Below, one piece after another: positions 18,585-31,745 of a DNA stretch of 64,000 nt. The position numbers and the translations under genes were made by a program. The notes under the pieces were generated by a model that saw nothing but the letters and a program-made list of their open reading frames with translations, did no database searches and was not told where the DNA came from. Positions within the stretch are counted from its first letter, which is position 1; each line of letters begins with the position of its first letter. This DNA comes from an uncultured Alphaproteobacteria bacterium (lineage in GTDB: Bacteria; Pseudomonadota; Alphaproteobacteria; RF32; CAG-239), in assembly GCA_934276635.1 (NCBI GenBank), contig CAKQTH010000002.1, positions 11,822-75,821 on the forward strand, given 5' to 3'.

Positions 18585-21500
18585 ATGAAAAATTATGTTT
18601 TCAAGAGAATTCTGTTAACAACAAGCGTGGCTTGCGGCGCGCTTTTTGTCTCGGGGAATGTAAATGCGGCAACCGTGTCTACATGGGAAGAATTTAAGGC
18701 GGCGATTGCGGCCGGAGAAAGCGAGATTGTGCTTGCGGACAACCTGACGGCGACCGATATAATCACAATTACAAGTCCGCTCAGCATCAAGAGCGCGGAC
18801 GGACAGGTTTATAAAATTTCTGCGGCTGACGGGCTGAAATTTTCCGACTCCTTTATCAAATATACCGGCACATCGTCTTCTCCGCTGCTTAATTTGAGCA
18901 ATGTGCAGATTTCAAACATTTACCGTTTTAACAACACCAACGCCGGAACATACGCTGGCGGCGTAATCAACAACTCGGGCAAAATCGGCACGATTGACGG
19001 TGTGTTTTCTGACAACAAAATGGAATATAATCTAGACAGCGGTGGGCATACCAGAGTGTACGGCGGTATAATCTATAACAGTTCGTCCGGCTCCATAGAT
19101 AAAATCGGCGGCACATTTTCCAGCAACGACTTTGTCAGCCGCGTTCCGTGGAGCAGCCTCAACTCCTGGGGCGGCATAATCAGCAACCAGGGCACTATCA
19201 ACGAAATTGATGCAAACTTTATCGGAAACACTATGTCGACAGAAGATTATAGAGATAACTATACTTATGGCGGAATAATACAATCGAGCGGAAAAATCGG
19301 CACAATCAGAGGATTGTTCAAAGACAATATATTAAAATATTACAACTACACCAGCTACTGGAATGAGCAAAGGGGTAGTTTGATGTATATACAAAACGGG
19401 GTAGACAATATCTATGCCGACTTTATAAACAACTCCCTATATAATGAAGCCAATGACACTCTGACACGTGTCCACGCATCTTTAAACTTAGGTTTTATAA
19501 CCTTGCAATATAACAATATAAACGATTTTGTATCGTCTTTTGCTGAAAATAAGATGAATGTAACACTTACCGGAAACGGTAACGGATTTGTCAGAATAAA
19601 TGATATATACCAGACAACCGCAAAAAATATTGTGTTTGATATGCATAACAACAAAGTTGATGCAACAGCTGAAGGTTATATATATTATGAAAGCTTCAAC
19701 ATGGAAGGGGATTCAACTGATGTTACATTTAATAATTCCAAATTCTATGAAAATGAAACAACATTAGAATCCACCACAAAAAACATTTATGCCTCCGGCT
19801 TAATGACTGTATCCAGCAGCGGTGCGAAAGCAACATTTAACAATGTGCTGTTTAAGGACAATATTACTACCGCAGTCGGGAATTCGACCATCAGCGGCGG
19901 CGGTATCAAAAACAACGGTACATTAAACATTAACACCGCGCTTTTTGAAAACAACCTGATTAATTCCACAAATGCGGCAAACGGCGGAGCAATTTCCAAC
20001 GCAAAAACCGCCTCGATTATTGCTGATTTTGTCGGCAACAAAGCTTTCGCCGGAACGGATACTTCCACCGACACCAACGCCGTGGCCAGAGGTGGCGCGG
20101 TTTACAACTCCGCAGCCGGAACAATCGAAAAGCTCAGCGGCGTATTCTCTGACAACAAAGCGTATGCGATCGGCAAAACAAAATCTTCCGCTCTCGGCGG
20201 CGCGGTCTATAACAAAGGAAACCTCACTCTTTCTAATATCGTGATGGCCGACAACAACGCGGTTGCCGAAACCGGAACAGCCGACGAAACAAACAAGCCG
20301 GAAGCGCTCGGCGGTGCGGTTTATAACCTCGGAGATTTGCATATCAACGGTTCTGACGGCTTTGAAAACATTATCTCCGGCAACAAGGCGACTACCAAAA
20401 TCGGCGAGACCGAAAACACCGTGCAAAACGGAATATACACCGCCGCGGCCGACAAGAATGTATTTGTTAATATGACGACCGATTCAAAACTGTTCGTCTA
20501 TGACACCATCGACGGCGTTGAGGCCGGATACAACCTAAAATTTGACGGCGATGAAACCGGCCAGGCGTTTATTTATAACAATATTATCAACGCCAACATC
20601 TTTTTGGACAATATGTATCTGAACATTGCTCAAGAAGAATATCTCGACAATGCGAAAACTCTGACGCTTTCTTCCGGTCATTTGGATTTGATGAACGGAA
20701 AAGTCGGAACAATCCGCCCGGCAATGACTTTGACCGGCAATGTTCTGCTCTCCGTTGATGTCGATTTGTCCAACAAAATTATGGACCGCTTTGCCGATGG
20801 CGCAACCGCTACGGCCGGAAAACTCACAATCTCGCAGATAAATCTTCTTTCTGACGCTCTGCAAGATGTTGTGTATGTTCCGTTTGCCGAAGACAGCTGG
20901 CGCGACAAAGTTGATACCACCGTTACCGACGCCGTATATTCGAGCATCTATAAATATACGGTTTCGTACGAGGCTGACGGCGACGAAAACGGCGAAAATC
21001 GCGGCTCGTTCAAATTTGTCCGCACTTCGGTCATAAACCCGAATATTGAGGCGTCTTCAATCGCGGGAATCATCAACGGGGCAATGACGCAAGGCTTGAT
21101 TTATCAAAAAGCCCTGCAAGGCACCGATAACGCCGCACTCATCGGCCTCGGTATGTCTTCCGGCGATGAAAAGAGCGAATACGCTATCGGACAAATGTGG
21201 ATAAGACCGTTCTTGAGCAAAGAAAATGTTGATCTCAAATATTCCAACACCGTCCGTGCACAGGCTCGTGGTATGGTCTTTGGTATCGACAGCAACGACA
21301 TTCATCTTGACAACGGCGGAGAGCTCACAATCAGCCTCTATGGCGCAGTCGTCGACTCCGACCAAAAGTTTGAGCAAAACAAAGTTAAACAAACCGGAGG
21401 CAACCTCGGCGGATCTATCGTGGCAACATACGGCGACTTCTTTGCCGCAGTCACCGCCAATATCGGTATGAGCGATAATGAAGTCAACACCGTCACCGGC

Positions 21501-21974
21501 AAAGACAACTTTAATATCTATCTCGGCGGTGCGGCGTTCAAAACCGGCTACAATATCAGCCTTAACGAAAGCAAAGACCTGGTTATTCAGCCGAACTTCC
21601 TGACTTCGTACACCGCGCTGAAAACCGAAAATTATCACACTTCGGCCGGCGTTCATGTAAAGTCTGATATGCTGCATGTGGTAGAAATCGCTCCGGGCTT
21701 TAAGCTCATCAAAGAATACGACCACGGATTTAAGGCATATGCTACCATGACGGCGGTTTGGAATGTTATAATCGACGGCGAGGTTCGCGCAAACAATGTG
21801 GTTCTGCCTGACTTGAGCGTCAAACCATACATTGAATACGGATTCGGTTTTGAAAAAGACTGGAGCCAAGAAGAATGGAACCCGGTTGACCTCACAACAT
21901 TCGCGCAAATCGTCAGACGCGACGGCGGACGCGAAGGTTGGGCAGGAACCGCGGGTATCAAATGGAGCTTCTGA
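18585..21974 (+). CDS. autotransporter adhesin with Pmp-type (GGA[IV]xN / FxxN) passenger repeats and a C-terminal beta-barrel
   Basis: Signal peptide MKNYVFKRILLTTSVACGALFVSGNVNA. Repeated GGAIYN/GGAVYN...F.GN motifs. The C-terminus ends in GIKWSF (aromatic terminal residue). 1129 aa. Confidence 0.8.
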   Translation: MKNYVFKRILLTTSVACGALFVSGNVNAATVSTWEEFKAAIAAGESEIVLADNLTATDIITITSPLSIKSADGQVYKISAADGLKFSDSFIKYTGTSSSPLLNLSNVQISNIYRFNNTNAGTYAGGVINNSGKIGTIDGVFSDNKMEYNLDSGGHTRVYGGIIYNSSSGSIDKIGGTFSSNDFVSRVPWSSLNSWGGIISNQGTINEIDANFIGNTMSTEDYRDNYTYGGIIQSSGKIGTIRGLFKDNILKYYNYTSYWNEQRGSLMYIQNGVDNIYADFINNSLYNEANDTLTRVHASLNLGFITLQYNNINDFVSSFAENKMNVTLTGNGNGFVRINDIYQTTAKNIVFDMHNNKVDATAEGYIYYESFNMEGDSTDVTFNNSKFYENETTLESTTKNIYASGLMTVSSSGAKATFNNVLFKDNITTAVGNSTISGGGIKNNGTLNINTALFENNLINSTNAANGGAISNAKTASIIADFVGNKAFAGTDTSTDTNAVARGGAVYNSAAGTIEKLSGVFSDNKAYAIGKTKSSALGGAVYNKGNLTLSNIVMADNNAVAETGTADETNKPEALGGAVYNLGDLHINGSDGFENIISGNKATTKIGETENTVQNGIYTAAADKNVFVNMTTDSKLFVYDTIDGVEAGYNLKFDGDETGQAFIYNNIINANIFLDNMYLNIAQEEYLDNAKTLTLSSGHLDLMNGKVGTIRPAMTLTGNVLLSVDVDLSNKIMDRFADGATATAGKLTISQINLLSDALQDVVYVPFAEDSWRDKVDTTVTDAVYSSIYKYTVSYEADGDENGENRGSFKFVRTSVINPNIEASSIAGIINGAMTQGLIYQKALQGTDNAALIGLGMSSGDEKSEYAIGQMWIRPFLSKENVDLKYSNTVRAQARGMVFGIDSNDIHLDNGGELTISLYGAVVDSDQKFEQNKVKQTGGNLGGSIVATYGDFFAAVTANIGMSDNEVNTVTGKDNFNIYLGGAAFKTGYNISLNESKDLVIQPNFLTSYTALKTENYHTSAGVHVKSDMLHVVEIAPGFKLIKEYDHGFKAYATMTAVWNVIIDGEVRANNVVLPDLSVKPYIEYGFGFEKDWSQEEWNPVDLTTFAQIVRRDGGREGWAGTAGIKWSF

Positions 21975-22562: not shown

Positions 22563-25175
22563 TTACAATTTGAAATCAATAACGCCGTCATACGCATAGC
22601 GATATAACTTTTCGATTTCTTCAATCAGCGGATAGCGTGGGTTGGCCGAAGTGCATTGATCGTCAAACGCCAGCGTCGGCAATGTTTCCATCGCTTTTTC
22701 AAACGCATCTTTGTCAATGCCCCACTCCTTAATCGAAGCCGGAATATTAAGCTCTTTTTTGAGCTCCTCAACCTTTTGAATCAGGCTTTCTACCAGCTCG
22801 TCATCGGTCTTTCCTTTAAGCCCCATCGCCTCGGCAAAACTGGCATACGCGGCCTTTGCGTGCGGAAAACGATATTGCGGGAATACGCCCTGTTTTACCG
22901 GACAATCGGTTGCGTTATAGCGAATAACCTGGCAAATCAGCAACGCATTCGCAATTCCGTGCGGAACATGGAACGCGGCGCCAAGCTTGTGAGCCATCGA
23001 GTGGCAAACGCCCAAAAACGCATTGGCAAACGCCATACCGGCAATCGTCGCAGCGTGATGAACCCTCTCACGAGACAGAGCATCGGCGTTTTTATATGAC
23101 GATGGCAGATATTCCAAAATCAACTTGCCGGACTCGGTCGAAAGCCCGCGGGTGTATTCGGTAGACATTACCGAAACATAAGATTCCAACGCATGCGTCA
23201 AAACATCGATACCCGATGCGGCACACAGCCCGCGCGGCATTGTCAAAACCAAATCGGCATCAACAATCGCCATATTCGGGGTCAACGCATAGTCCGCAAT
23301 AGCATATTTAATTCCTGTCGTATCGTCGGTAATAATCGAGAACGGCGTAACTTCGGAACCAGTACCGGAAGTTGTCGGAATCGCAACCATTTCAGCCTTT
23401 TTGCCGAGCGGCGGAAATTCAAAAATTCTCTTTCTGATATCCATAAAGCGCATTGCCAAATCTTCAAATTTGAGCTCAGGATGCTCATACATCAGCCACA
23501 AAATTTTGGACGCATCAATCGGAGAACCGCCGCCCAAAGCAATAATCACATCAGGCTCAAAGCTGTTAAGCTGCTTGATTGCCACATTGATGGTGCTCAA
23601 ATCCGGATCCGGCTTAACATCAGAGAAAATGCGGTGTGCAATACCCATCTCGTCCAAAATATCCGTAATCTTTTTGGTATATCCCAAATCAAACAACGGC
23701 TTGTCGGTCACAATAAACGCCTTTTTCTTTCCGGCCAGTTCTTTCAGGGCAAATCCGAGCGAACCCGGTTTGAAATAAATTTTTGACGGGACTTTGAACC
23801 ACAACATATTTTCCTCTCTTTTTGCAACGGTTTTAGTATTAAGCAAGTGTTTTACGCCGACATTTTCACTGACGGAGTTTCCGCCCCACGAGCCGCAGCC
23901 CAAAGTCAGCGAAGGTTCAAGCCTGAAGTTATAAATATCGCCGATTGCGCCTTGCGATGACGGACAGTTAATCATAATTCTGCCGGTGTGCATTGTTGCG
24001 CCGAAAGTCTTGATTCTGTCTTCATTTGCCTGATTTGTATACAGAACTGAAGTGTGTCCGTTGCCGCCGAATGTTACCAAAGCTTTTGCTTTTGCAACTG
24101 CGGATTCAAAATCTTTTTCCTTATACATTGCCAAAACCGGAGAAAGCTTTTCAGCCGAGAAAGGCTCTTCTTTGCCGACTTTTTCGCACAGAGCAATCAA
24201 AACCTTTGTCTGCGGTGCAACTTCTATTCCGGCCATTTTGGCGATAGTCGCGGCTTTTTGCCCCACAATCGCGGAATTGAGCTTGCCGTCCGGCATAATC
24301 ACCTTGCCGAGAGCCTCTTTTTCTTTTGCGCTCAAAATATATGCGCCGCGTTTCAAAAATTCCGCCTTGACGGCATCATAAACCGCATCAACCACAACGA
24401 CCGACTGCTCAGAAGCACAAATCATACCATTATCAAAGGTTTTTGACATCAAAATTGAGCTGACGGCCATTTGCAAATCCGCAGTTTCATCAATCACTGC
24501 CGGAGTATTGCCAGCGCCGACGCCGAGAGCTGGATTTCCGGAAGAATAAGCCGATTTAACCATTCCCGGACCGCCGGTAGCCAAAATCAAATTGGTCTTT
24601 TCGTGCTGCATAAGGTATTGTGTTTGGAAGATTGACGGATTTTCAATCCAGCTGATGATATTTTCCGGAGCGCCGGCCTTTACTGCCTCTTCCAAAATGA
24701 TTTTTGCGGTTTCCACCGTGCATTTTTTGGCGCGCGGATGCGGAGAAAATACAATAGCATTTCTGGTTTTCAGCGCAATCAAGCTTTTGAAAATCACCGT
24801 AGAAGTCGGGTTTGTGGTCGGAATAACGCCGGCAATCACGCCTATCGGATCAGCAATTTTAATCACGCCGTTTTCTTTATCTTCGGCGACAATTCCGCAA
24901 GTTTTTGCGTTTTTATATTTGTTATAGATATATTCCGAGGCGAAATGGTTTTTAATCACCTTATCTTCAACAACGCCCATACCTGTTTCTTCTACCGCCA
25001 TTTTTGCGAGCGGAATACGCAGGGAGCTCATTTTGAGCGCAACGCGGCGAAAGATATGGTCAACTCGTTCCTGCGAATAGGTTGCATAAATTTTCTGAGC
25101 CGCCGAAACTTTTTCAAGCAAATTATCGATGTATTGTTTTTCTTTTTCCATAACATCTTGATTTTCTTCAGCCAT
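22563..25175 (-). CDS. adhE: bifunctional acetaldehyde-CoA/alcohol dehydrogenase
   Basis: N-terminal ALDH domain and a C-terminal Fe-ADH domain (GGGSPIDASK ...). About 870 aa. The start was moved to the ATG at 25175, which has a GGAGAA ribosome-binding site. Confidence 0.9.
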   Translation of the reverse strand: MAEENQDVMEKEKQYIDNLLEKVSAAQKIYATYSQERVDHIFRRVALKMSSLRIPLAKMAVEETGMGVVEDKVIKNHFASEYIYNKYKNAKTCGIVAEDKENGVIKIADPIGVIAGVIPTTNPTSTVIFKSLIALKTRNAIVFSPHPRAKKCTVETAKIILEEAVKAGAPENIISWIENPSIFQTQYLMQHEKTNLILATGGPGMVKSAYSSGNPALGVGAGNTPAVIDETADLQMAVSSILMSKTFDNGMICASEQSVVVVDAVYDAVKAEFLKRGAYILSAKEKEALGKVIMPDGKLNSAIVGQKAATIAKMAGIEVAPQTKVLIALCEKVGKEEPFSAEKLSPVLAMYKEKDFESAVAKAKALVTFGGNGHTSVLYTNQANEDRIKTFGATMHTGRIMINCPSSQGAIGDIYNFRLEPSLTLGCGSWGGNSVSENVGVKHLLNTKTVAKREENMLWFKVPSKIYFKPGSLGFALKELAGKKKAFIVTDKPLFDLGYTKKITDILDEMGIAHRIFSDVKPDPDLSTINVAIKQLNSFEPDVIIALGGGSPIDASKILWLMYEHPELKFEDLAMRFMDIRKRIFEFPPLGKKAEMVAIPTTSGTGSEVTPFSIITDDTTGIKYAIADYALTPNMAIVDADLVLTMPRGLCAASGIDVLTHALESYVSVMSTEYTRGLSTESGKLILEYLPSSYKNADALSRERVHHAATIAGMAFANAFLGVCHSMAHKLGAAFHVPHGIANALLICQVIRYNATDCPVKQGVFPQYRFPHAKAAYASFAEAMGLKGKTDDELVESLIQKVEELKKELNIPASIKEWGIDKDAFEKAMETLPTLAFDDQCTSANPRYPLIEEIEKLYRYAYDGVIDFKL

Positions 25176-25341
25176 AGTTTTCTCCATTATAAAAATTATT
25201 CGATGATAATATCGGGCGATTTTGCGCAAAATTCAAGCGTTTTATCAAAATATCAAATCAATATTTGTTACCATATATTTTAATTGCAATCTGCAAAATT
25301 TTTGCTAGAATTTACAGCAGGATAAATTATTGGAGTTTTTT

Positions 25342-25635
25342 ATGATGAAAAAAACATATTTGGCACTTTTTGCTGCGGCGTTTTTGCTCGGCGGCTGCTC
25401 TGAGCGAAACGAATTTTTACTGACTTGCAACACATTGGGTTTCAACGATTTACGCGATTTGACTTTTCAGGAATGCCGCTGCGTTGCCGACGAACTTGAG
25501 CAAAATCTTGCGGTTGAAGACTTTTCTGAGCTTAATAAGATATTGAAAAATCGCGAGCAGCCACAGATAAATTCAACTTCCGACATTGTTCTGCGCGATG
25601 CCGGACGCAAGTGCGTAAATCCCCTGAAACAATAG
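25342..25635 (+). CDS. small lipoprotein (4 Cys in the mature part)
   Basis: MMKKTYLALFAAAFLLGGCSE lipobox. A GGAG ribosome-binding site lies 5 nt upstream. Confidence 0.55.
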   Translation: MMKKTYLALFAAAFLLGGCSERNEFLLTCNTLGFNDLRDLTFQECRCVADELEQNLAVEDFSELNKILKNREQPQINSTSDIVLRDAGRKCVNPLKQ

Positions 25636-25725
25636 AAAAATCAACTGCGGCATAATTAATATTAGACAAATATTTTTTTTGTGCTAATATTATATCAGTA
25701 TTGTTTATCCGCAAAGGAAAAAATT

Positions 25726-27015
25726 ATGAATCAGGAAAATCTCGAAGTTGTGAAAAAGTTGATGCGATTTGCCAAAGGAAAGCTCGTAAGCGCCTACAAT
25801 TCCGAGCTTTTTCAAAACTTTAAGGCCGAATACACCGGCGCAAAACTGGTTGAAAAGCTGCGTGCCGGAAAGGTCGGCTTTGTCAATGGCGTAAATCAGG
25901 CAAAAGTGGTTTTCCGTCCTCGCTATAAATTGGCTAAAGCGCGTGCTATTGCGGCCGGTCAGCGATTTTTGAGCTTTACGAAAGAAAATCTGCAAGCAGC
26001 GAAAAATTCTGATTTATACAAAGATTTTCAAAATTCAAAATTGGTGCAAAATTGCCGAAAATACGGGCGAAAAGCGGTGCTTGCGGCGTCGATTTCGGGC
26101 GTGTTGCTCGGCGGCGGATATATCTTTAAGAAAAATTCCAACAACAAGAGAACTGCCGAATACAGGCAGGAGATTGTCACTCATACCCCGACCGTGGACG
26201 AGGCCATCAAACATAACGAAAATCTGCTGTTTGCCACCATCGTTCATTCCGAAAATTTCAGCAATGAGCCATACCGCGATTCCGCCGGAGTTCCGACCAT
26301 CGGCTATGGCACGACCGTTTATCCGAACGGAAAAAGAGTTACGATGGGCGACAATCCGATAAGCCGCACTCTTTCGCCGGAAATGGTGCAAAAAAACAAC
26401 GGCAGCTACAAAGACGCGATGTATGACAAGGCGCAGGGATATGTTATATCTCACCTTGAAAAAGAGGTGTATCCGGCGCTCAGAGAGATTAAAGACTTCA
26501 ACAAGCTCACGCAAAATCAACAGGTTGCGCTCGGGCTGTTTGTTTATAATATCGGAAAGTCGGGCTTTGAAAACTCGTCTGTTTTGCAAGAGCTTAATGC
26601 CGGAAATACCTTAGCCGCGTTTGATAACATACTCAAATATAACAAAGTGAAAGGCAAACGGGGAGGATTGGTATTTTCGAGAGGCCTGCAAAAGCGCCGC
26701 GCGTACGAATATATGATTGCGCAGGGCAATGTTTCTTTGGCCGATGTGATAAAAATGCCGATCGGAAGCTTGTATGTCGACTCAGCTTATGAGCTTATGT
26801 ATGGTGGGAAAACAGCGAAAGACTTTGCCGGCGAAAACATTGTAAAGCCGGATTCTTCCAAAGCGGCAGGATATGTTACCGCGCTGATGAGCGCGGCCGG
26901 CAATAAGGTTGAGCATTGCGTCACCAGCGCCTGCCGGCAGGATATCAAAGCAAAAACGGCGTCCGATGCCCAAAAAATTGAAGTTGCGATGCTTGACCGC
27001 GGCAACAGGCGTTGA
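25726..27015 (+). CDS. inner-membrane-anchored glycoside hydrolase family 24 (phage-type lysozyme) protein
   Basis: About 125 aa cytoplasmic N-domain, one TM (AVLAASISGVLLGGGYIF), then a GH24 signature: HSENFSNEPYRDSAGVPTIGYGTT ... LTQNQQVALGLFVYNIGKSGF ... KRGGLVFSRGLQKRRAYEYM. Confidence 0.65.
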   Translation: MNQENLEVVKKLMRFAKGKLVSAYNSELFQNFKAEYTGAKLVEKLRAGKVGFVNGVNQAKVVFRPRYKLAKARAIAAGQRFLSFTKENLQAAKNSDLYKDFQNSKLVQNCRKYGRKAVLAASISGVLLGGGYIFKKNSNNKRTAEYRQEIVTHTPTVDEAIKHNENLLFATIVHSENFSNEPYRDSAGVPTIGYGTTVYPNGKRVTMGDNPISRTLSPEMVQKNNGSYKDAMYDKAQGYVISHLEKEVYPALREIKDFNKLTQNQQVALGLFVYNIGKSGFENSSVLQELNAGNTLAAFDNILKYNKVKGKRGGLVFSRGLQKRRAYEYMIAQGNVSLADVIKMPIGSLYVDSAYELMYGGKTAKDFAGENIVKPDSSKAAGYVTALMSAAGNKVEHCVTSACRQDIKAKTASDAQKIEVAMLDRGNRR

Positions 27016-27063
27016 CATTTCGACCTATTGATACTTATATAATCAGCAGAAAGGGATTTTGTG

Positions 27064-27318
27064 ATGAATTACAAGATTAGCGATTTTTTGATTTGGTTGT
27101 CGGTATTGGTCGCAATGGGGCTGATAATGGCGTTTTCGTTTTATTTGTTTATATTTTTGCTGCCGATAATTTTGCTCGGGATTGTGGGCTATATGTGTTT
27201 TTATCTGTATTGTTACTATGTTGCGAAGCATTCAAAACGCGGGTGCGGAGTAAAAAAATCTGAAAAAAGTGAAAAAATTATCGATGTTGAGTATGAAATA
27301 CTGGACAATAAAAAATAA
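27064..27318 (+). CDS. small two-TM membrane protein with a charged C-terminal tail (holin-like topology)
   Basis: 84 aa with two hydrophobic helices and a KHSKRGCGVKKSEKSEK tail. Lies directly after the lysozyme gene. Confidence 0.4.
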   Translation: MNYKISDFLIWLSVLVAMGLIMAFSFYLFIFLLPIILLGIVGYMCFYLYCYYVAKHSKRGCGVKKSEKSEKIIDVEYEILDNKK

Positions 27319-27404
27319 TTGTATATAATAGGCGATGTTACGTGATGAGAGCGGCAGGGTGATATCTGCCGTTCGCTTTTCAAATAACAGTATATTTCAA
27401 AAAC

Positions 27405-27446
27405 AAAAAAGCCGCGGATGGGGTTTCCCGCCGCGGCTTTTTTGCC
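27405..27446. terminator. bidirectional rho-independent terminator
   Basis: GC-rich hairpin GCCGCGG-atggggtttcc-CCGCGGC flanked by A6 and T6 runs, between the convergent 27064-27318 (+) and 27457-30864 (-) genes. Confidence 0.7.
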
Positions 27447-27456
27447 TTGACTAAGC

Positions 27457-30400
27457 CTACCATTCCTGAGTATATTTCAACTTAGGATTGTTCAAACGCT
27501 TTATATAATTAGGGTTACTTCTTTCTACTCCTTGTTCTACTGTTCTAAGGCTTGAATATTGATTATATTCTGTATCAACCATATTTTCATTGAAATAACT
27601 ATTACTGTTGTTTGTCAAACCATTTCTATCGAAATAACAATATACAGTCGCATAACCTTCTATACTCCATTTATCAACCGGGAACAAATTCCAATATATT
27701 TTGTTATCTCCTTGTCCAAGCTGCGGTGCTTCTGATCCACCCATTCCCGGTGTTTTGCTTGAATCAAACAAGTGGCTCCACAACACTGACGGATAGATAA
27801 ATCCCATATAGGTATTCCAACCTACAAATTGTCCGCCTGTTGAATATTCATTTCCTTTGTTATTATTTTCTCCTACATTTCCTCCCAAATTAAGCTTAAT
27901 TGCCGACTTCAACCATGTATTTTGTTGGAATATTCTCGGAATTGTTATAGAACCTCCTCCTGCCGGAATCTCTTTTATATCACCTTTTATCAATCCTTTA
28001 CTGGTCATATCATAAATCTTTTTATCTGGAGATTTGGCACTAGTGTTTCCATACATTGGTGTCGATTCGTTCAAATATAATCTATTACCTGCATCTGCAC
28101 TGCTATCTTCTACCAGAGTACCGATTTGAGCCATACGCCAGCCGGCAGGAGTCAAAGTAATAACTTTTGCATACCCCGGAGGACACTGCGGCGCCGGGAC
28201 AACTCCTAAAAATGCTGATGCAAATATAGCATTTACTTCCTTCACTGAATTGTTCATACTAGTTATGTCTTTTTCTTTAGGTGTCGTTCCCTCACCATAG
28301 CTGTTATCCGTAACATAAATACCTTTATTAATAAAGTCAGGCAAAATATCGCTCAAACGAGCTCCACCGCGGGAGGTCAGCTTGATATCGTGCATAACCG
28401 AAGTATATGCCGGATCTACCATATAGTGGTCATAACGCACACCATGACCTATTGTTTTGTCTTTATATACTTCATTTGGATTTCTCTCATAAGATACTCC
28501 GTTTTTTACATCCTGGACATTATCTACAACAAACCTGTCCGCTTTAACATACCCCGTCCCCGCATCAGCAGCATTTTTACCGGTTGAATCAGCAGCATTT
28601 TTACCGGTTGAAGAGGCTATCTTGTCTAAATCATCAAATTGCTGTACATCTATTGAACCTCTGCGGATATATACACCAGCTTTGATAGTATTATTTGCTC
28701 TATCTTGTACATTAAAATTATCATCACCTTTTGAAACATCATCTGAGCCGCTTACCGCCAACACATTATTTTGCAAGACAACTTTTCCGCCATATGCATT
28801 ATCACCAGACTTATGATGAACAGTTTGAATATGTATATATTGATCACCCTGCAATTGAATATTATTCGATGCATTAAATTGCAAGAAACTACCTTTATCA
28901 TATTTAGGAGTGACATCTATGCCATTATTTGCTTCTACACTATCTCTAGACAATGTTATTGTTCCATCTACTCCCTTTGTTGAATCTGACGGGGAAACAT
29001 TCATTACAATATCTCCACCCTTTACCGTTGTATTAACATTACCAGCAGTAACTTTGTTTTCTATGTTAGCATCAGAAACAGTCATAGCTATACCGCCGAC
29101 ATTCTTAACCGCTTTGCCATCGTCTTTATAAATTCGACCTATATCCAATTGAGAGAGTGGTTTTTTTACTGTTGATCCTGACGATGATTGTCCTAACGTC
29201 CTCATTTGAATAGTACCTTGTAGCAAGTCGCCTACACTTTCTTGGTCATTGCCATAACCTTTTATTTGTCTGGCTTCTTCAAGCTTTCCGCTGGACGCCA
29301 CATTTATATATGCATACTGCGCCGGTAATTCTCCCGCTTTACTTTCACCTTTTCTTTTATACCCGATTTTAACACCGTTTTTATCTACATCTAAATTCCA
29401 GGTTTCTTGGCTATTGTCTAGATCGTTTCTGCCTGCGCGCAATGATTTTGTATCAAAATTATCAGATTTCAAATATCCTGTTTCCAGCTGTGTCGCAATT
29501 GTTCTACCTGATAAAATATTTGCATTTTTTGCATTATTTGCGGCAACTATATATGATGTATAAGCAGCATTGCCATCACTATCTTTTTTTCCTATACGAG
29601 CATATTTGTCTTTAAATCCGGACCCATCGTATGTGGCTTTATTATCTTGTGTACCGACATAATTTTTTGGATTCATTGCCACAAGTTGATTTTTAATAGT
29701 CGTTCCATCTTCTTTGATACTAACCTTAGCATCGTCACTATTGCCAAAGAAACGAACAGCTCTTGCATCACCAGATTCTTCTGCGCCTATATTTGCAGAA
29801 ATTAAATTATTAGCATATGTCAAAGTATTACTATTTACGGCAAACTTATCCTTACTATCGCCGGTTCTGCTGAATGTCATGCCACTGTTATCAACAACCA
29901 GTCCGGCTCCGGCAACCGCTGTAGTATTTCCTTCTCCTGTAGTAGAGGTATACGGATTGTATTTAAATTCTGTTTCATCGACACTCAGTTTTTTCCGAGC
30001 GGCTTCCAATGATCCGCCTAACCAAGTATTTTTAACAGCGCCTTTACTGCTGACATACAAAGCATAACCTTCTGCATCGGCAGTTATATCATCATCTTGA
30101 TTATCTTTTTTATTTCCATCTCTTCCTTCTTGATGGCCAATCAAAAGTTGGCGAACGCCTTCGATGCTTTTTGCGCCATCATCACCCCACATATACAAGT
30201 TTGTCTGCATGGTGTTGTTTTCAACATCATCTTCAACGCGATATAAAAACTTGCTGGTATCAATCTGTGCCGACGCCCCGACCGCATTCTGCGATGCCAC
30301 AACAACCGAGTTATCAGAAATACCATTTAGCTCTATATCTGCAGGATCTGTCTGCCATGTACCCTGAACGCCGAGCACTTCACCGTTGTCAACAATTGCT

Positions 30401-30864
30401 CCGTTCCCGCCAATCATTGTCGCAATTCTTGATGTGCGTTGCGCCGTAATCTTGTCATCTGTAACATTTGCGCCAACATATCCGGTAATAACAGGGGCTT
30501 TCGGGTTATCCGTTTCTTTTACGACATAAGAAAATTTATATTCTTCCCCAAGCGGGCCATAAACTTTTTCCCCTTCAACAGCTCCTTCAGGCAAATATTT
30601 TGCCAATTTGTCCGCCGTTAAAGTGTATTTGCCATCATGTCCATCGCCTTTCAAGGTATCATAATTATCGCTGATATAGGCATCAAGCGCGGAGCTGAGC
30701 ATTCTCATATGGCTCGCCGCGTTGATATCTTGCAGCTCGGTCATTCTTTCCGCTGATTTTTTATAAACAACAGGAGTAACCAGCGAAATTAACCCCAACA
30801 TTGCTATCGCCTCAATCATCAAGCTACCAGCCTGATTTATCTTTTTCATATCAAAGTTTTTCAT
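27457..30864 (-). CDS. giant (1135 aa) protein with a type IV prepilin-type N-terminal cleavage/methylation signal; modular pilin-like adhesin candidate
   Basis: N-terminus MKNFDMKKINQAG|SLMIEAIAMLGLISLVTPVVY: a basic leader, Gly at -1, Glu at +5, a hydrophobic stretch of about 20 aa, then an amphipathic helix, as in pilin alpha-1. The rest is G/N/D/K/T-rich predicted beta-rich sequence containing a perfect 8-aa tandem repeat. Confidence 0.6.
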   Translation of the reverse strand: MKNFDMKKINQAGSLMIEAIAMLGLISLVTPVVYKKSAERMTELQDINAASHMRMLSSALDAYISDNYDTLKGDGHDGKYTLTADKLAKYLPEGAVEGEKVYGPLGEEYKFSYVVKETDNPKAPVITGYVGANVTDDKITAQRTSRIATMIGGNGAIVDNGEVLGVQGTWQTDPADIELNGISDNSVVVASQNAVGASAQIDTSKFLYRVEDDVENNTMQTNLYMWGDDGAKSIEGVRQLLIGHQEGRDGNKKDNQDDDITADAEGYALYVSSKGAVKNTWLGGSLEAARKKLSVDETEFKYNPYTSTTGEGNTTAVAGAGLVVDNSGMTFSRTGDSKDKFAVNSNTLTYANNLISANIGAEESGDARAVRFFGNSDDAKVSIKEDGTTIKNQLVAMNPKNYVGTQDNKATYDGSGFKDKYARIGKKDSDGNAAYTSYIVAANNAKNANILSGRTIATQLETGYLKSDNFDTKSLRAGRNDLDNSQETWNLDVDKNGVKIGYKRKGESKAGELPAQYAYINVASSGKLEEARQIKGYGNDQESVGDLLQGTIQMRTLGQSSSGSTVKKPLSQLDIGRIYKDDGKAVKNVGGIAMTVSDANIENKVTAGNVNTTVKGGDIVMNVSPSDSTKGVDGTITLSRDSVEANNGIDVTPKYDKGSFLQFNASNNIQLQGDQYIHIQTVHHKSGDNAYGGKVVLQNNVLAVSGSDDVSKGDDNFNVQDRANNTIKAGVYIRRGSIDVQQFDDLDKIASSTGKNAADSTGKNAADAGTGYVKADRFVVDNVQDVKNGVSYERNPNEVYKDKTIGHGVRYDHYMVDPAYTSVMHDIKLTSRGGARLSDILPDFINKGIYVTDNSYGEGTTPKEKDITSMNNSVKEVNAIFASAFLGVVPAPQCPPGYAKVITLTPAGWRMAQIGTLVEDSSADAGNRLYLNESTPMYGNTSAKSPDKKIYDMTSKGLIKGDIKEIPAGGGSITIPRIFQQNTWLKSAIKLNLGGNVGENNNKGNEYSTGGQFVGWNTYMGFIYPSVLWSHLFDSSKTPGMGGSEAPQLGQGDNKIYWNLFPVDKWSIEGYATVYCYFDRNGLTNNSNSYFNENMVDTEYNQYSSLRTVEQGVERSNPNYIKRLNNPKLKYTQEW
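28564..28611 (-). repeat. perfect 24-bp tandem duplication inside the giant pilin-like CDS (encodes STGKNAAD x2)
   Basis: atcagcagcatttttaccggttga occurs twice back to back, at 28564-28587 and 28588-28611. Confidence 0.9.
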
Positions 30865-30875
30865 CGCTTTTCTCC

Positions 30876-31745
30876 TTATCTTACAACACTCATAACAATT
30901 AAACAGTTACTGGAATCTTTGTGGCAGTTGCTATCAGACGCGAACAATCCATTTTGGGAAATCGCCTTCGGAATCGGCACAAGTTTGTCTTGAAACCCGC
31001 TGATAAAATACTCAAAATTGTTAACCATCAACGAGTTACCTGCTGAATCTTTATATAATTTTTCATCAATCACTTGATCTTTATATTTGCCGGCAGGAAC
31101 CACATACCCCATCTTTACGCCCTGAGTCGAAGTTTTTTTGATGGCTTTTATCAAATCTTCATTCGGAGCCTCTAAGGTAGAGCCTTCAGCTCCTCTGGCT
31201 CTCCAACGCACAGGAATCGGCATTGTGGTCACAACATACAGCCTTGCATAGTTTTTGTTCGGAATAGGGTTCCCGTTTTCATCAACTTTGATTGAACCGT
31301 CTTCATTTTTCTGAGTTGCTCCTTCAGAACCCTGACAAAGCTTTATATCCGCGGTCAATTCAAGCCGATTAAAAACCGTAGGGTCATGCATATCGCGGCT
31401 TTTGATGCAATATAGCTTTGAAACTTCGCCGACCTCAGGCCTAAATCCTTCCAAAACGGTTTCAGATAAAATTCCACCTTCTGGTTTACCTGTATCTGGA
31501 TTCTCTTTAGGATTAAGTTCCGCCTTTGTTATCGTCCCCAAATACATTGTCCCGTCTTGCCCATTTTTCGCCAGCTTGTATTGCTTCTTAGTATATTTTG
31601 TGACTGCCTCATGCTGAATCAAAAGCTTTGAAATGACAGCCTGCGCCTGCGGCGTTACATACAAATCGCGCGAATCGGATCGCACGCTCAAATTATATGA
31701 AAACAGCGCCACAACAAATGTTGCCAATATTACCCAGATATACAT
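30876..31745 (-). CDS. membrane-anchored 289-aa protein co-operonic with the giant pilin-like gene (possible minor pilin or assembly partner without a canonical leader)
   Basis: The ATG has a GGGGGAAGAG ribosome-binding site and in-frame stops upstream. N-terminal hydrophobic helix MYIWVILATFVVALFSY followed by a helical segment. The stop lies 9 nt before the GGAGA ribosome-binding site and ATG of the downstream gene. Confidence 0.5.
   Translation of the reverse strand: MYIWVILATFVVALFSYNLSVRSDSRDLYVTPQAQAVISKLLIQHEAVTKYTKKQYKLAKNGQDGTMYLGTITKAELNPKENPDTGKPEGGILSETVLEGFRPEVGEVSKLYCIKSRDMHDPTVFNRLELTADIKLCQGSEGATQKNEDGSIKVDENGNPIPNKNYARLYVVTTMPIPVRWRARGAEGSTLEAPNEDLIKAIKKTSTQGVKMGYVVPAGKYKDQVIDEKLYKDSAGNSLMVNNFEYFISGFQDKLVPIPKAISQNGLFASDSNCHKDSSNCLIVMSVVR

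Follow-up and report, generated by a model that had tools for sequence, protein, structure and literature searches.

A 64-kb stretch of DNA from an uncultured Alphaproteobacteria lineage known from metagenomes only (hereafter, the window) encodes a 429-aa protein in which a lysozyme domain of the phage type (GH24) follows a basic N-terminal domain and a single transmembrane (TM) helix. With modest confidence, we interpret this protein as a cellular, vertically inherited muramidase that would be tethered to the inner membrane, act in the periplasm on the wall of its own cell, and have accessory proteins specific to one clade. The gene (25726..27015, + strand, stop codon included) lies between two others on the same strand, encoding a 97-aa lipoprotein (25342..25635) and an 84-aa membrane protein (27064..27318), and a plausible Shine-Dalgarno sequence precedes each of the three open reading frames (ORFs). 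Because the lysozyme gene is a conserved chromosomal gene whose product has a predicted inner-membrane anchor and an unusual, presumably cytoplasmic domain, we infer a cell-wall enzyme of the cell itself, rather than a prophage remnant or a pilus accessory. An initial annotation of the window had described the same gene order, ending at a terminator shared with a converging giant pilin-like gene, and had divided the 429-aa protein into a cytoplasmic N-terminal domain, a TM helix, a GH24 domain, and a C-terminal extension; the ORFs and hairpins confirm the former, and the Pfam match, hydropathy, and charge distribution agree with the latter.

Residues 175–328 match Phage_lysozyme (PF00959) of Pfam with an E-value of 1e-21 (78.1 bits vs. 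a cutoff of 22.3), and the protein also matches the endolysin family PHROG 7 (E-value 1.5e-27). The GH24 domain (residues 166–330; 26221..26715, +) has the T4/P22 lysozyme fold, and structural matches of the protein include R21 and the DLP12 endolysin RrrD. Its catalytic residues (E176-x8-D185-x5-T191; the E176 codon is at 26251–26253) are spaced as are E11, D20, and T26 of T4 lysozyme; across an alignment of 12 family members, E176 and T191 are invariant, and D185 is present in all but one (11/12). E176 is the Glu of the motif HSENFSNE, the conservation of which the initial annotation had proposed as a check on catalytic competence, and the Glu/Asp/Thr triad is intact. An AlphaFold2 (AF2) model built on the 12-member alignment has a predicted local distance difference test (pLDDT) score of ~85–96 over most of the GH24 domain, and is poor for the N-terminal domain, TM, and linker. 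Relative to the lysozymes of Acinetobacter phages, the domain carries an insertion of ~25 aa. Overall, the protein is somewhat more readily understood as a periplasmic muramidase of the phage-endolysin type than as anything else.

The N-terminal domain (N-domain; residues 1–116; 25726..26073, +) is basic and helical (25 K+R vs. 8 D+E in the first 117 residues), and arose by internal tandem duplication of a ~40-aa unit (pattern RFxxFTKxxLxSAxNSxLxxxF). Its internal repeat score of 52 was reached by none of 2000 shuffles (mean 23.5, maximum 49), and the repeat is also significant in the orthologs P0005 and P0027. The sole hydrophobic segment of the protein is the TM at residues 117–135 (AVLAASISGVLLGGGYIFK; 26074..26130, +), which is weakly hydrophobic (Kyte–Doolittle 19-residue mean of 1.5) and has a composition like that of a signal-anchor or a signal-anchor-release (SAR) domain: the helix (AVLAASISGVLLGGGYIF) is 44–50% Gly/Ala/Ser/Thr, and a like composition is found across all clades of the family. 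The linker between TM and GH24 domain (residues 136–165; 26131..26220, +) is hypervariable, with ~30 aa here and low-complexity sequence of ~120–185 aa in most members of distant clades; in a comparison of this region with P0009–P0012, the long linkers are Lys/Glu/Pro-rich. Linker length may set the reach of the tethered enzyme into the wall. The C-terminal extension (C-extension; residues 331–429; 26716..27012, +) is helical and family-specific, and ends in a variable basic tail; AF2 pLDDT is ~78–93 over residues 331–410, Y350 is invariant, and the extension is conserved in roughly 30–40 cluster representatives. From hydropathy and charge, we infer a cytoplasmic location for the N-domain and a periplasmic one for the linker, GH24 domain, and C-extension.

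Neither the isolated N-domain nor the isolated C-extension matches Pfam even at an E-value of 10, and none of the solved structures aligns past ~157 residues, leaving the C-extension without a known relative. The initial annotation, which had singled out both extensions for profile and structure searches, had put them at ~125 and ~80 aa; the values are 116 aa for the N-domain and 99 aa for the C-extension, of which ~70–80 aa are confidently modeled. Among relatives that are 87–93% identical overall, the N-domain and TM are 98–100% identical, the GH24 domain 90–93%, and the linker ~50%. Constraint within the lysozyme is thus strongest on its cytoplasmic part, an argument that the N-domain has a function.

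The full architecture of the 429-aa protein is rare. Fifteen metagenomic contigs encode the exact protein and share the same gene order. Among 5.8 billion clusters, a word-index search returned 24 relatives; among 1.84 billion representatives, an exhaustive profile search returned 31 cluster representatives at E<1e-30, ~10 of them full-length, together with thousands of GH24-only matches. In a collection of species-representative genomes, the matches that extend beyond GH24, to the N-domain or the C-extension, are three Alphaproteobacteria metagenome-assembled genomes, and the genes for GapR and TrcR in the neighborhoods are consistent with this class. The N-domain and the full architecture occur in none of the phage records (50,697 genomes) or viral contigs searched, in agreement with the statement in the initial annotation that no endolysin of this layout was known, and no description of the architecture was found in the literature. 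Viral contigs that match residues 183–418 (L079 and similar) were rejected as unrelated: they are of high-GC phage, and after the GH24 domain they have a C-terminal membrane region of another kind.

The window is ordinary chromosome, with pfk, rpoD, dnaG, a ppiD/surA-like gene, tpiA, queH, pgpA, adhE, uvrB, and uvrC, as well as pgsA, a TolQ-like gene, efp, trcR, yidC, and engB; GC content is uniform across it, the three-gene cassette being the same as its flanks. Profile scans, with PADLOC for defense genes, found no phage, pilus-assembly, type VI secretion, or defense genes in the 64 kb. In a close relative (L129; 86% identity to the 429-aa protein), the arrangement is as in the window, giant gene included. 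At 46% identity (L007), the same three genes lie beside pgpA and are followed by SIR2, TrkA, and Dus, with no giant gene; at 49% identity (L131), the order is gyrA, pgpA, lipoprotein, and lysozyme, after which the contig ends. In three distant clades (26–31% identity), the lysozyme gene is directly downstream of ppdK (pyruvate phosphate dikinase), with other neighbors and no partners; these clades have 44–59 residues before the TM, vs. 116 in the clade of the window, and appear to hold a single copy of the N-domain repeat beside the TM. The tie of the cassette to housekeeping loci is therefore old, and its tie to the "pilin" gene recent and local.

All three cassette genes are under purifying selection. 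Between the window and L129, the ratio of nonsynonymous to synonymous substitution rates (dN/dS; Nei–Gojobori method) is 0.013 for the lipoprotein, 0.145 for the lysozyme, and 0.158 for the 84-aa protein; by the same measure, adhE gives 0.029, and the converging 1135-aa gene and the 289-aa gene upstream of it give 0.46 and 0.39, respectively.

The 97-aa protein is a lipoprotein by prediction, having a signal peptide and the lipobox LLGG-C19 (MMKKTYLALFAAAFLLGG-C19), the G-C of which is invariant in four orthologs; beyond Cys19, four further cysteines (C29, C45, C47, and C91) are invariant in the orthologs. The mature protein of ~78 aa is predicted to be helical, and an AF2 model from two sequences has four helices at low confidence (pLDDT 65). 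No family match was found in Pfam, NCBIfam, PHROG, or PADLOC, although the N-terminus has weak matches to NCBIfam lipoprotein models; a Foldseek search of the PDB with the low-confidence model gave nothing with E<7; and the lysozyme-inhibitor families (Ivy, MliC/PliC, PliI, PliG, and T4 Spackle) gave no Pfam or NCBIfam match. The 84-aa protein has ~45 hydrophobic residues, which could form two TM helices; its charged tail (9 K+R, 6 D+E), presumably cytoplasmic, terminates in the conserved motif IDVEYEI. The initial annotation had called its topology holin-like; the topology stands, as a non-specific feature, whereas the protein has no significant match in Pfam, PHROG, or PADLOC, holin families included, no similarity to the P21-type holin of phage APSE-2 (BLASTP E-value 0.87), and no phage context.

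Word-index searches with these two small proteins gave near-identical sequences only, and their distant orthologs were located by synteny. The lipoprotein ortholog in L007 is 52% identical (E-value 6e-32), with others in L131 and L129; the ortholog of the 84-aa protein in L007 is 31% identical, and keeps IDVEYEI at its C-terminus. Intergenic gaps within the L007 cassette are 10–17 bp. Both partners are conserved with the enzyme at 46–53% divergence, and the lipoprotein is kept in three lineages. They are found in the pgpA-linked clade only, where they probably modulate the enzyme.

It is unlikely that the cassette is a domesticated programmed-lysis module for release of gene transfer agents (GTAs), vesicles, or public goods, in which the helix would keep an inactive endolysin in the membrane, with the 84-aa protein as its pinholin- or releasin-like trigger and the lipoprotein as either an antidote or a factor targeting the outer membrane. 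Such a module would account for the weakly hydrophobic, Gly/Ala/Ser-rich TM that precedes the GH24 domain, as in the SAR endolysins P21 R21, P1 Lyz, and Mu gp22, and for the two-TM protein with a charged tail that is encoded directly downstream and co-inherited. Alphaproteobacterial GTAs are known to have chromosomal lysis genes separate from the structural genes, and the best NCBIfam match of the 429-aa protein is the model for the Bartonella GTA endolysin BgtA (NF058676); the score, however, is 50.3 bits vs. a cutoff of 315, and hence reflects generic GH24 similarity only. SAR domains, moreover, are located at the extreme N-terminus after a very short cytoplasmic segment, form weak Gly/Ala/Ser-rich helices, and belong to phage lysis cassettes, and a pair of Lys residues in this segment suffices to keep Mu gp22 from being released spontaneously (PMC9239132). 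In the 429-aa protein, by contrast, a conserved, strongly basic domain of 116 residues precedes the helix, sequence homology to SAR domains is absent, and there is no phage context; SAR-type release is unlikely because of this preceding basic domain and the lack of phage context. The N-domain, the most conserved part, would be superfluous for a lysis enzyme, the ppdK clades hold the enzyme without any such partner, and the 84-aa protein, besides belonging to no holin family in Pfam or PHROGs, has an acidic conserved tail motif. A phage lysis cassette such as that of APSE-2 (genes E, F, P14, and P16) likewise clusters a GH24 enzyme with a membrane protein and a lipoprotein, both small, but the gene order differs, and the cassette of the window has no i-spanin, no phage neighbors, and a stable chromosomal position over deep divergence. 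Homology of the TM itself to a phage SAR domain was considered and rejected: a tblastn alignment to APSE-2 began at residue 115, and a direct BLASTP comparison with the APSE-2 endolysin aligned only from residue 160.

The closest known system is SpmX, a polar localization factor of the Caulobacterales and a co-opted GH24 protein, which has an N-terminal muramidase domain, an intermediate domain, and C-terminal TMs. By analogy, the 429-aa protein could be a non-enzymatic or attenuated localization or scaffold factor that uses the lysozyme fold for binding, which is very improbable: the architecture is reversed, with a repeat domain and TM before the GH24 domain and a unique C-extension after it, the score against the SpmX model (NCBIfam NF051871, LysLocSpmX) is 20.5 bits vs. 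a cutoff of 700, and the protein lacks each of the defining SpmX features examined. The catalytic cleft of SpmX is remodeled, with D20L/R and a variable T26 (10.1101/418723), whereas here the full triad is retained, with no variation at E176 or T191 and almost none at D185. There is a similarly slight chance that the protein is a specialized peptidoglycan-lytic enzyme that opens the wall for a giant prepilin-like protein or fiber in the manner of VirB1, FlgJ, or EtgA, a role that the initial annotation had put forward, asking also whether the cassette always adjoins the pilin operon. The cassette does converge on the 1135-aa gene, which bears the motif GSLMIE, and shares a terminator with it, in both the window and L129; this adjacency is restricted to relatives at least 86% identical, being gone in L007 and all ppdK clades, the convergent orientation makes separate transcription units and precludes co-transcription, no pilus assembly genes are present in the window, and the giant gene evolves at a greatly different rate from the lysozyme and lipoprotein genes (see dN/dS above). 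What survives of this proposal is a general peptidoglycan-remodeling enzyme of the cell; the comparative loci contradict an enzyme dedicated to a pilus. Least probable of all are a muramidase toxin whose immunity protein is the lipoprotein and a decaying prophage lysis cassette, both also raised in the initial annotation. The GH24 domain is indeed of the phage type, and the conserved small periplasmic lipoprotein encoded directly upstream is the sole support for an effector–immunity pair; however, the enzyme would be anchored in the membrane of its own producer, no PADLOC or immunity-family match was found, and neither the window nor any related locus holds secretion, delivery, or phage genes. 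Prophage decay is refuted by this lack of phage genes, together with intact reading frames and triad, purifying selection, GC content equal to that of the flanks, and a stable position among housekeeping genes.

The tethered cell-wall muramidase that we favor may be compared with MltG/MpgA, which are N-in, single-pass bitopic glycan-cleaving enzymes with a cytoplasmic N-terminal domain, and with the lipoproteins that act on peptidoglycan enzymes, namely the outer-membrane regulators LpoA/B, NlpD, and NlpI and the lysozyme inhibitors MliC/PliC. The likeness is an analogy in overall logic, an anchored periplasmic glycan cleaver with a small lipoprotein encoded alongside; the catalytic folds are unrelated (YceG or GH23 vs. 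GH24), and the lipoprotein has no sequence similarity to LpoA/B, NlpD, NlpI, or MliC/PliC, nor fold similarity in a search with the low-confidence model. In the proposed mechanism, the weak Gly/Ala/Ser-rich helix would serve as a signal-anchor, and the enzyme would cut the peptidoglycan of its own cell from a permanent inner-membrane tether, since the conserved, strongly basic 116-aa domain before the helix should make release from the membrane impossible. Its lethal activity would then be bounded by the reach of the linker, and control would perhaps be exerted via the duplicated cytoplasmic module, for instance through localization or through a partner in the cytoplasm or membrane to which it is coupled. 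In the clade of the window, the enzyme is co-inherited with its two probable modulators, the lipoprotein, presumably disulfide-bonded and periplasmic, and the two-TM protein, the acidic IDVEYEI tail of which would face the cytoplasm; to judge from their predicted locations, the three proteins would together extend from the cytoplasm across the inner membrane and periplasm, possibly to the outer membrane.

Several points weigh against this interpretation. The AF2 model of the N-domain has a low-confidence pLDDT of about 50, and the topology is a prediction in which the residues right after the TM are also basic. The ppdK-linked clades are without the lipoprotein and two-TM partner, which are therefore not essential to the enzyme family. 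A two-TM protein beside a lysozyme with a SAR-like helix would also fit a controlled-lysis module, the SAR ancestry of the TM is a possibility suggested by composition alone, and the specific physiological role of the 429-aa protein is deduced from sequence. Even so, the protein likely originated as a co-opted phage GH24 endolysin, possibly of the SAR type, independently of SpmX. More tentatively, and with considerable doubt, the family might represent a second, independent domestication of phage GH24 in Alphaproteobacteria, in which a SAR-like anchor is locked by a duplicated basic module to yield a fully active housekeeping muramidase under an as yet undescribed, three-part, envelope-spanning system of autolysin control, from inside via the N-domain and the acidic tail and from outside via the disulfide-bonded lipoprotein.

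Other features were observed among the relatives. In a broader set of GH24 proteins that have a TM anchor and a related C-extension (P0015, P0028, and P0032–P0038; profile search), Cys replaces the catalytic Asp (motif PYFCGAxWTIGYG), with Glu and Thr retained; the gene for P0015 is also downstream of ppdK, the sole context seen for this set. The ppdK-linked lysozyme loci comprise L008 (10001–11353), L010, L014, L015, and L132 (3185–4234). In L132, pal and cpoB are ~2 kb downstream of the lysozyme gene, and in L008, ddl and mreBCD-pbp2-rodA are 2–10 kb downstream; these surroundings are a loose envelope-biogenesis neighborhood, not an operon. A Tol-Pal link in L132 was rejected: although Pal and CpoB are encoded there, no TolQRA signature is found in the three genes that separate them from the lysozyme gene. 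In the species group of the window only, adhE (22563–25229, – strand) lies between pgpA and the lipoprotein gene. At 46–49% identity, in L007 (9070–9983) and L131 (4987–5910), pgpA and the lipoprotein gene are immediate neighbors in divergent orientation, and adhE thus appears to have moved into the locus.

Downstream of the cassette, RNA folding identified a terminator-like hairpin directly 3′ of the 84-aa gene, followed by a U-run (27349..27374, +), and a GC-rich hairpin between an A-run and a U-run (27404..27444), a candidate bidirectional terminator common to the converging 1135-aa gene; the region has a fold z-score of –6.1, and none of 200 shuffles was as stable. Both stacked GC-rich hairpins lie in the convergent gap of 138 bp; the first would serve the + strand cassette only, whereas the A-run and U-run on either side of the second would allow it to work bidirectionally. 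The converging 1135-aa ORF (27457–30864, – strand) is real, and its GSLMIE is the sole prepilin-like motif in the window. Together with the upstream 289-aa gene (30876–31745, – strand), it evolves much faster than its neighbors: amino-acid identity to L129 is 66% for the 1135-aa and 73% for the 289-aa protein, vs. 99% for AdhE, although the first 50 residues of the 1135-aa protein, GSLMIE included, are identical in the L129 copy. Neither protein has a Pfam, NCBIfam, or PHROG match, and the two look like a variable surface protein pair. A second giant ORF (18585–21974, + strand; 1129 aa) encodes a protein that matches no family and begins with a signal peptide of the Sec type (MKNYVFKRILLTTSVACGALFVSGNVNAATV), and is conserved at the same place in L001, L002, L004, and L129; paralogy of the 1129-aa and 1135-aa proteins was rejected on comparison.

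How peptidoglycan cutters are kept active yet harmless is a central open question of cell-wall biology, and phage lysins are potent and normally lethal. To our knowledge, SpmX is the only well-studied phage GH24 lysozyme kept for cellular use, and it has been detoxified through damage to the active site. The 429-aa protein would be a cellular co-option of a kind already known, with an architecture and conservation pattern that are unusual and that point to a testable strategy for taming a lysin, the function being deduced: the family appears to combine an intact triad with a permanent tether, a strongly conserved cytoplasmic domain, and, in one clade, two dedicated small partners. With hosts that are uncultured and known from metagenomes only, the practical impact is limited. 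If the interpretation is true, however, the family would be a new example both of lysin taming and of transmembrane autolysin control, and the N-domain repeat, the C-extension, and the four-Cys lipoprotein would be three uncharacterized modules with a clear functional hypothesis.

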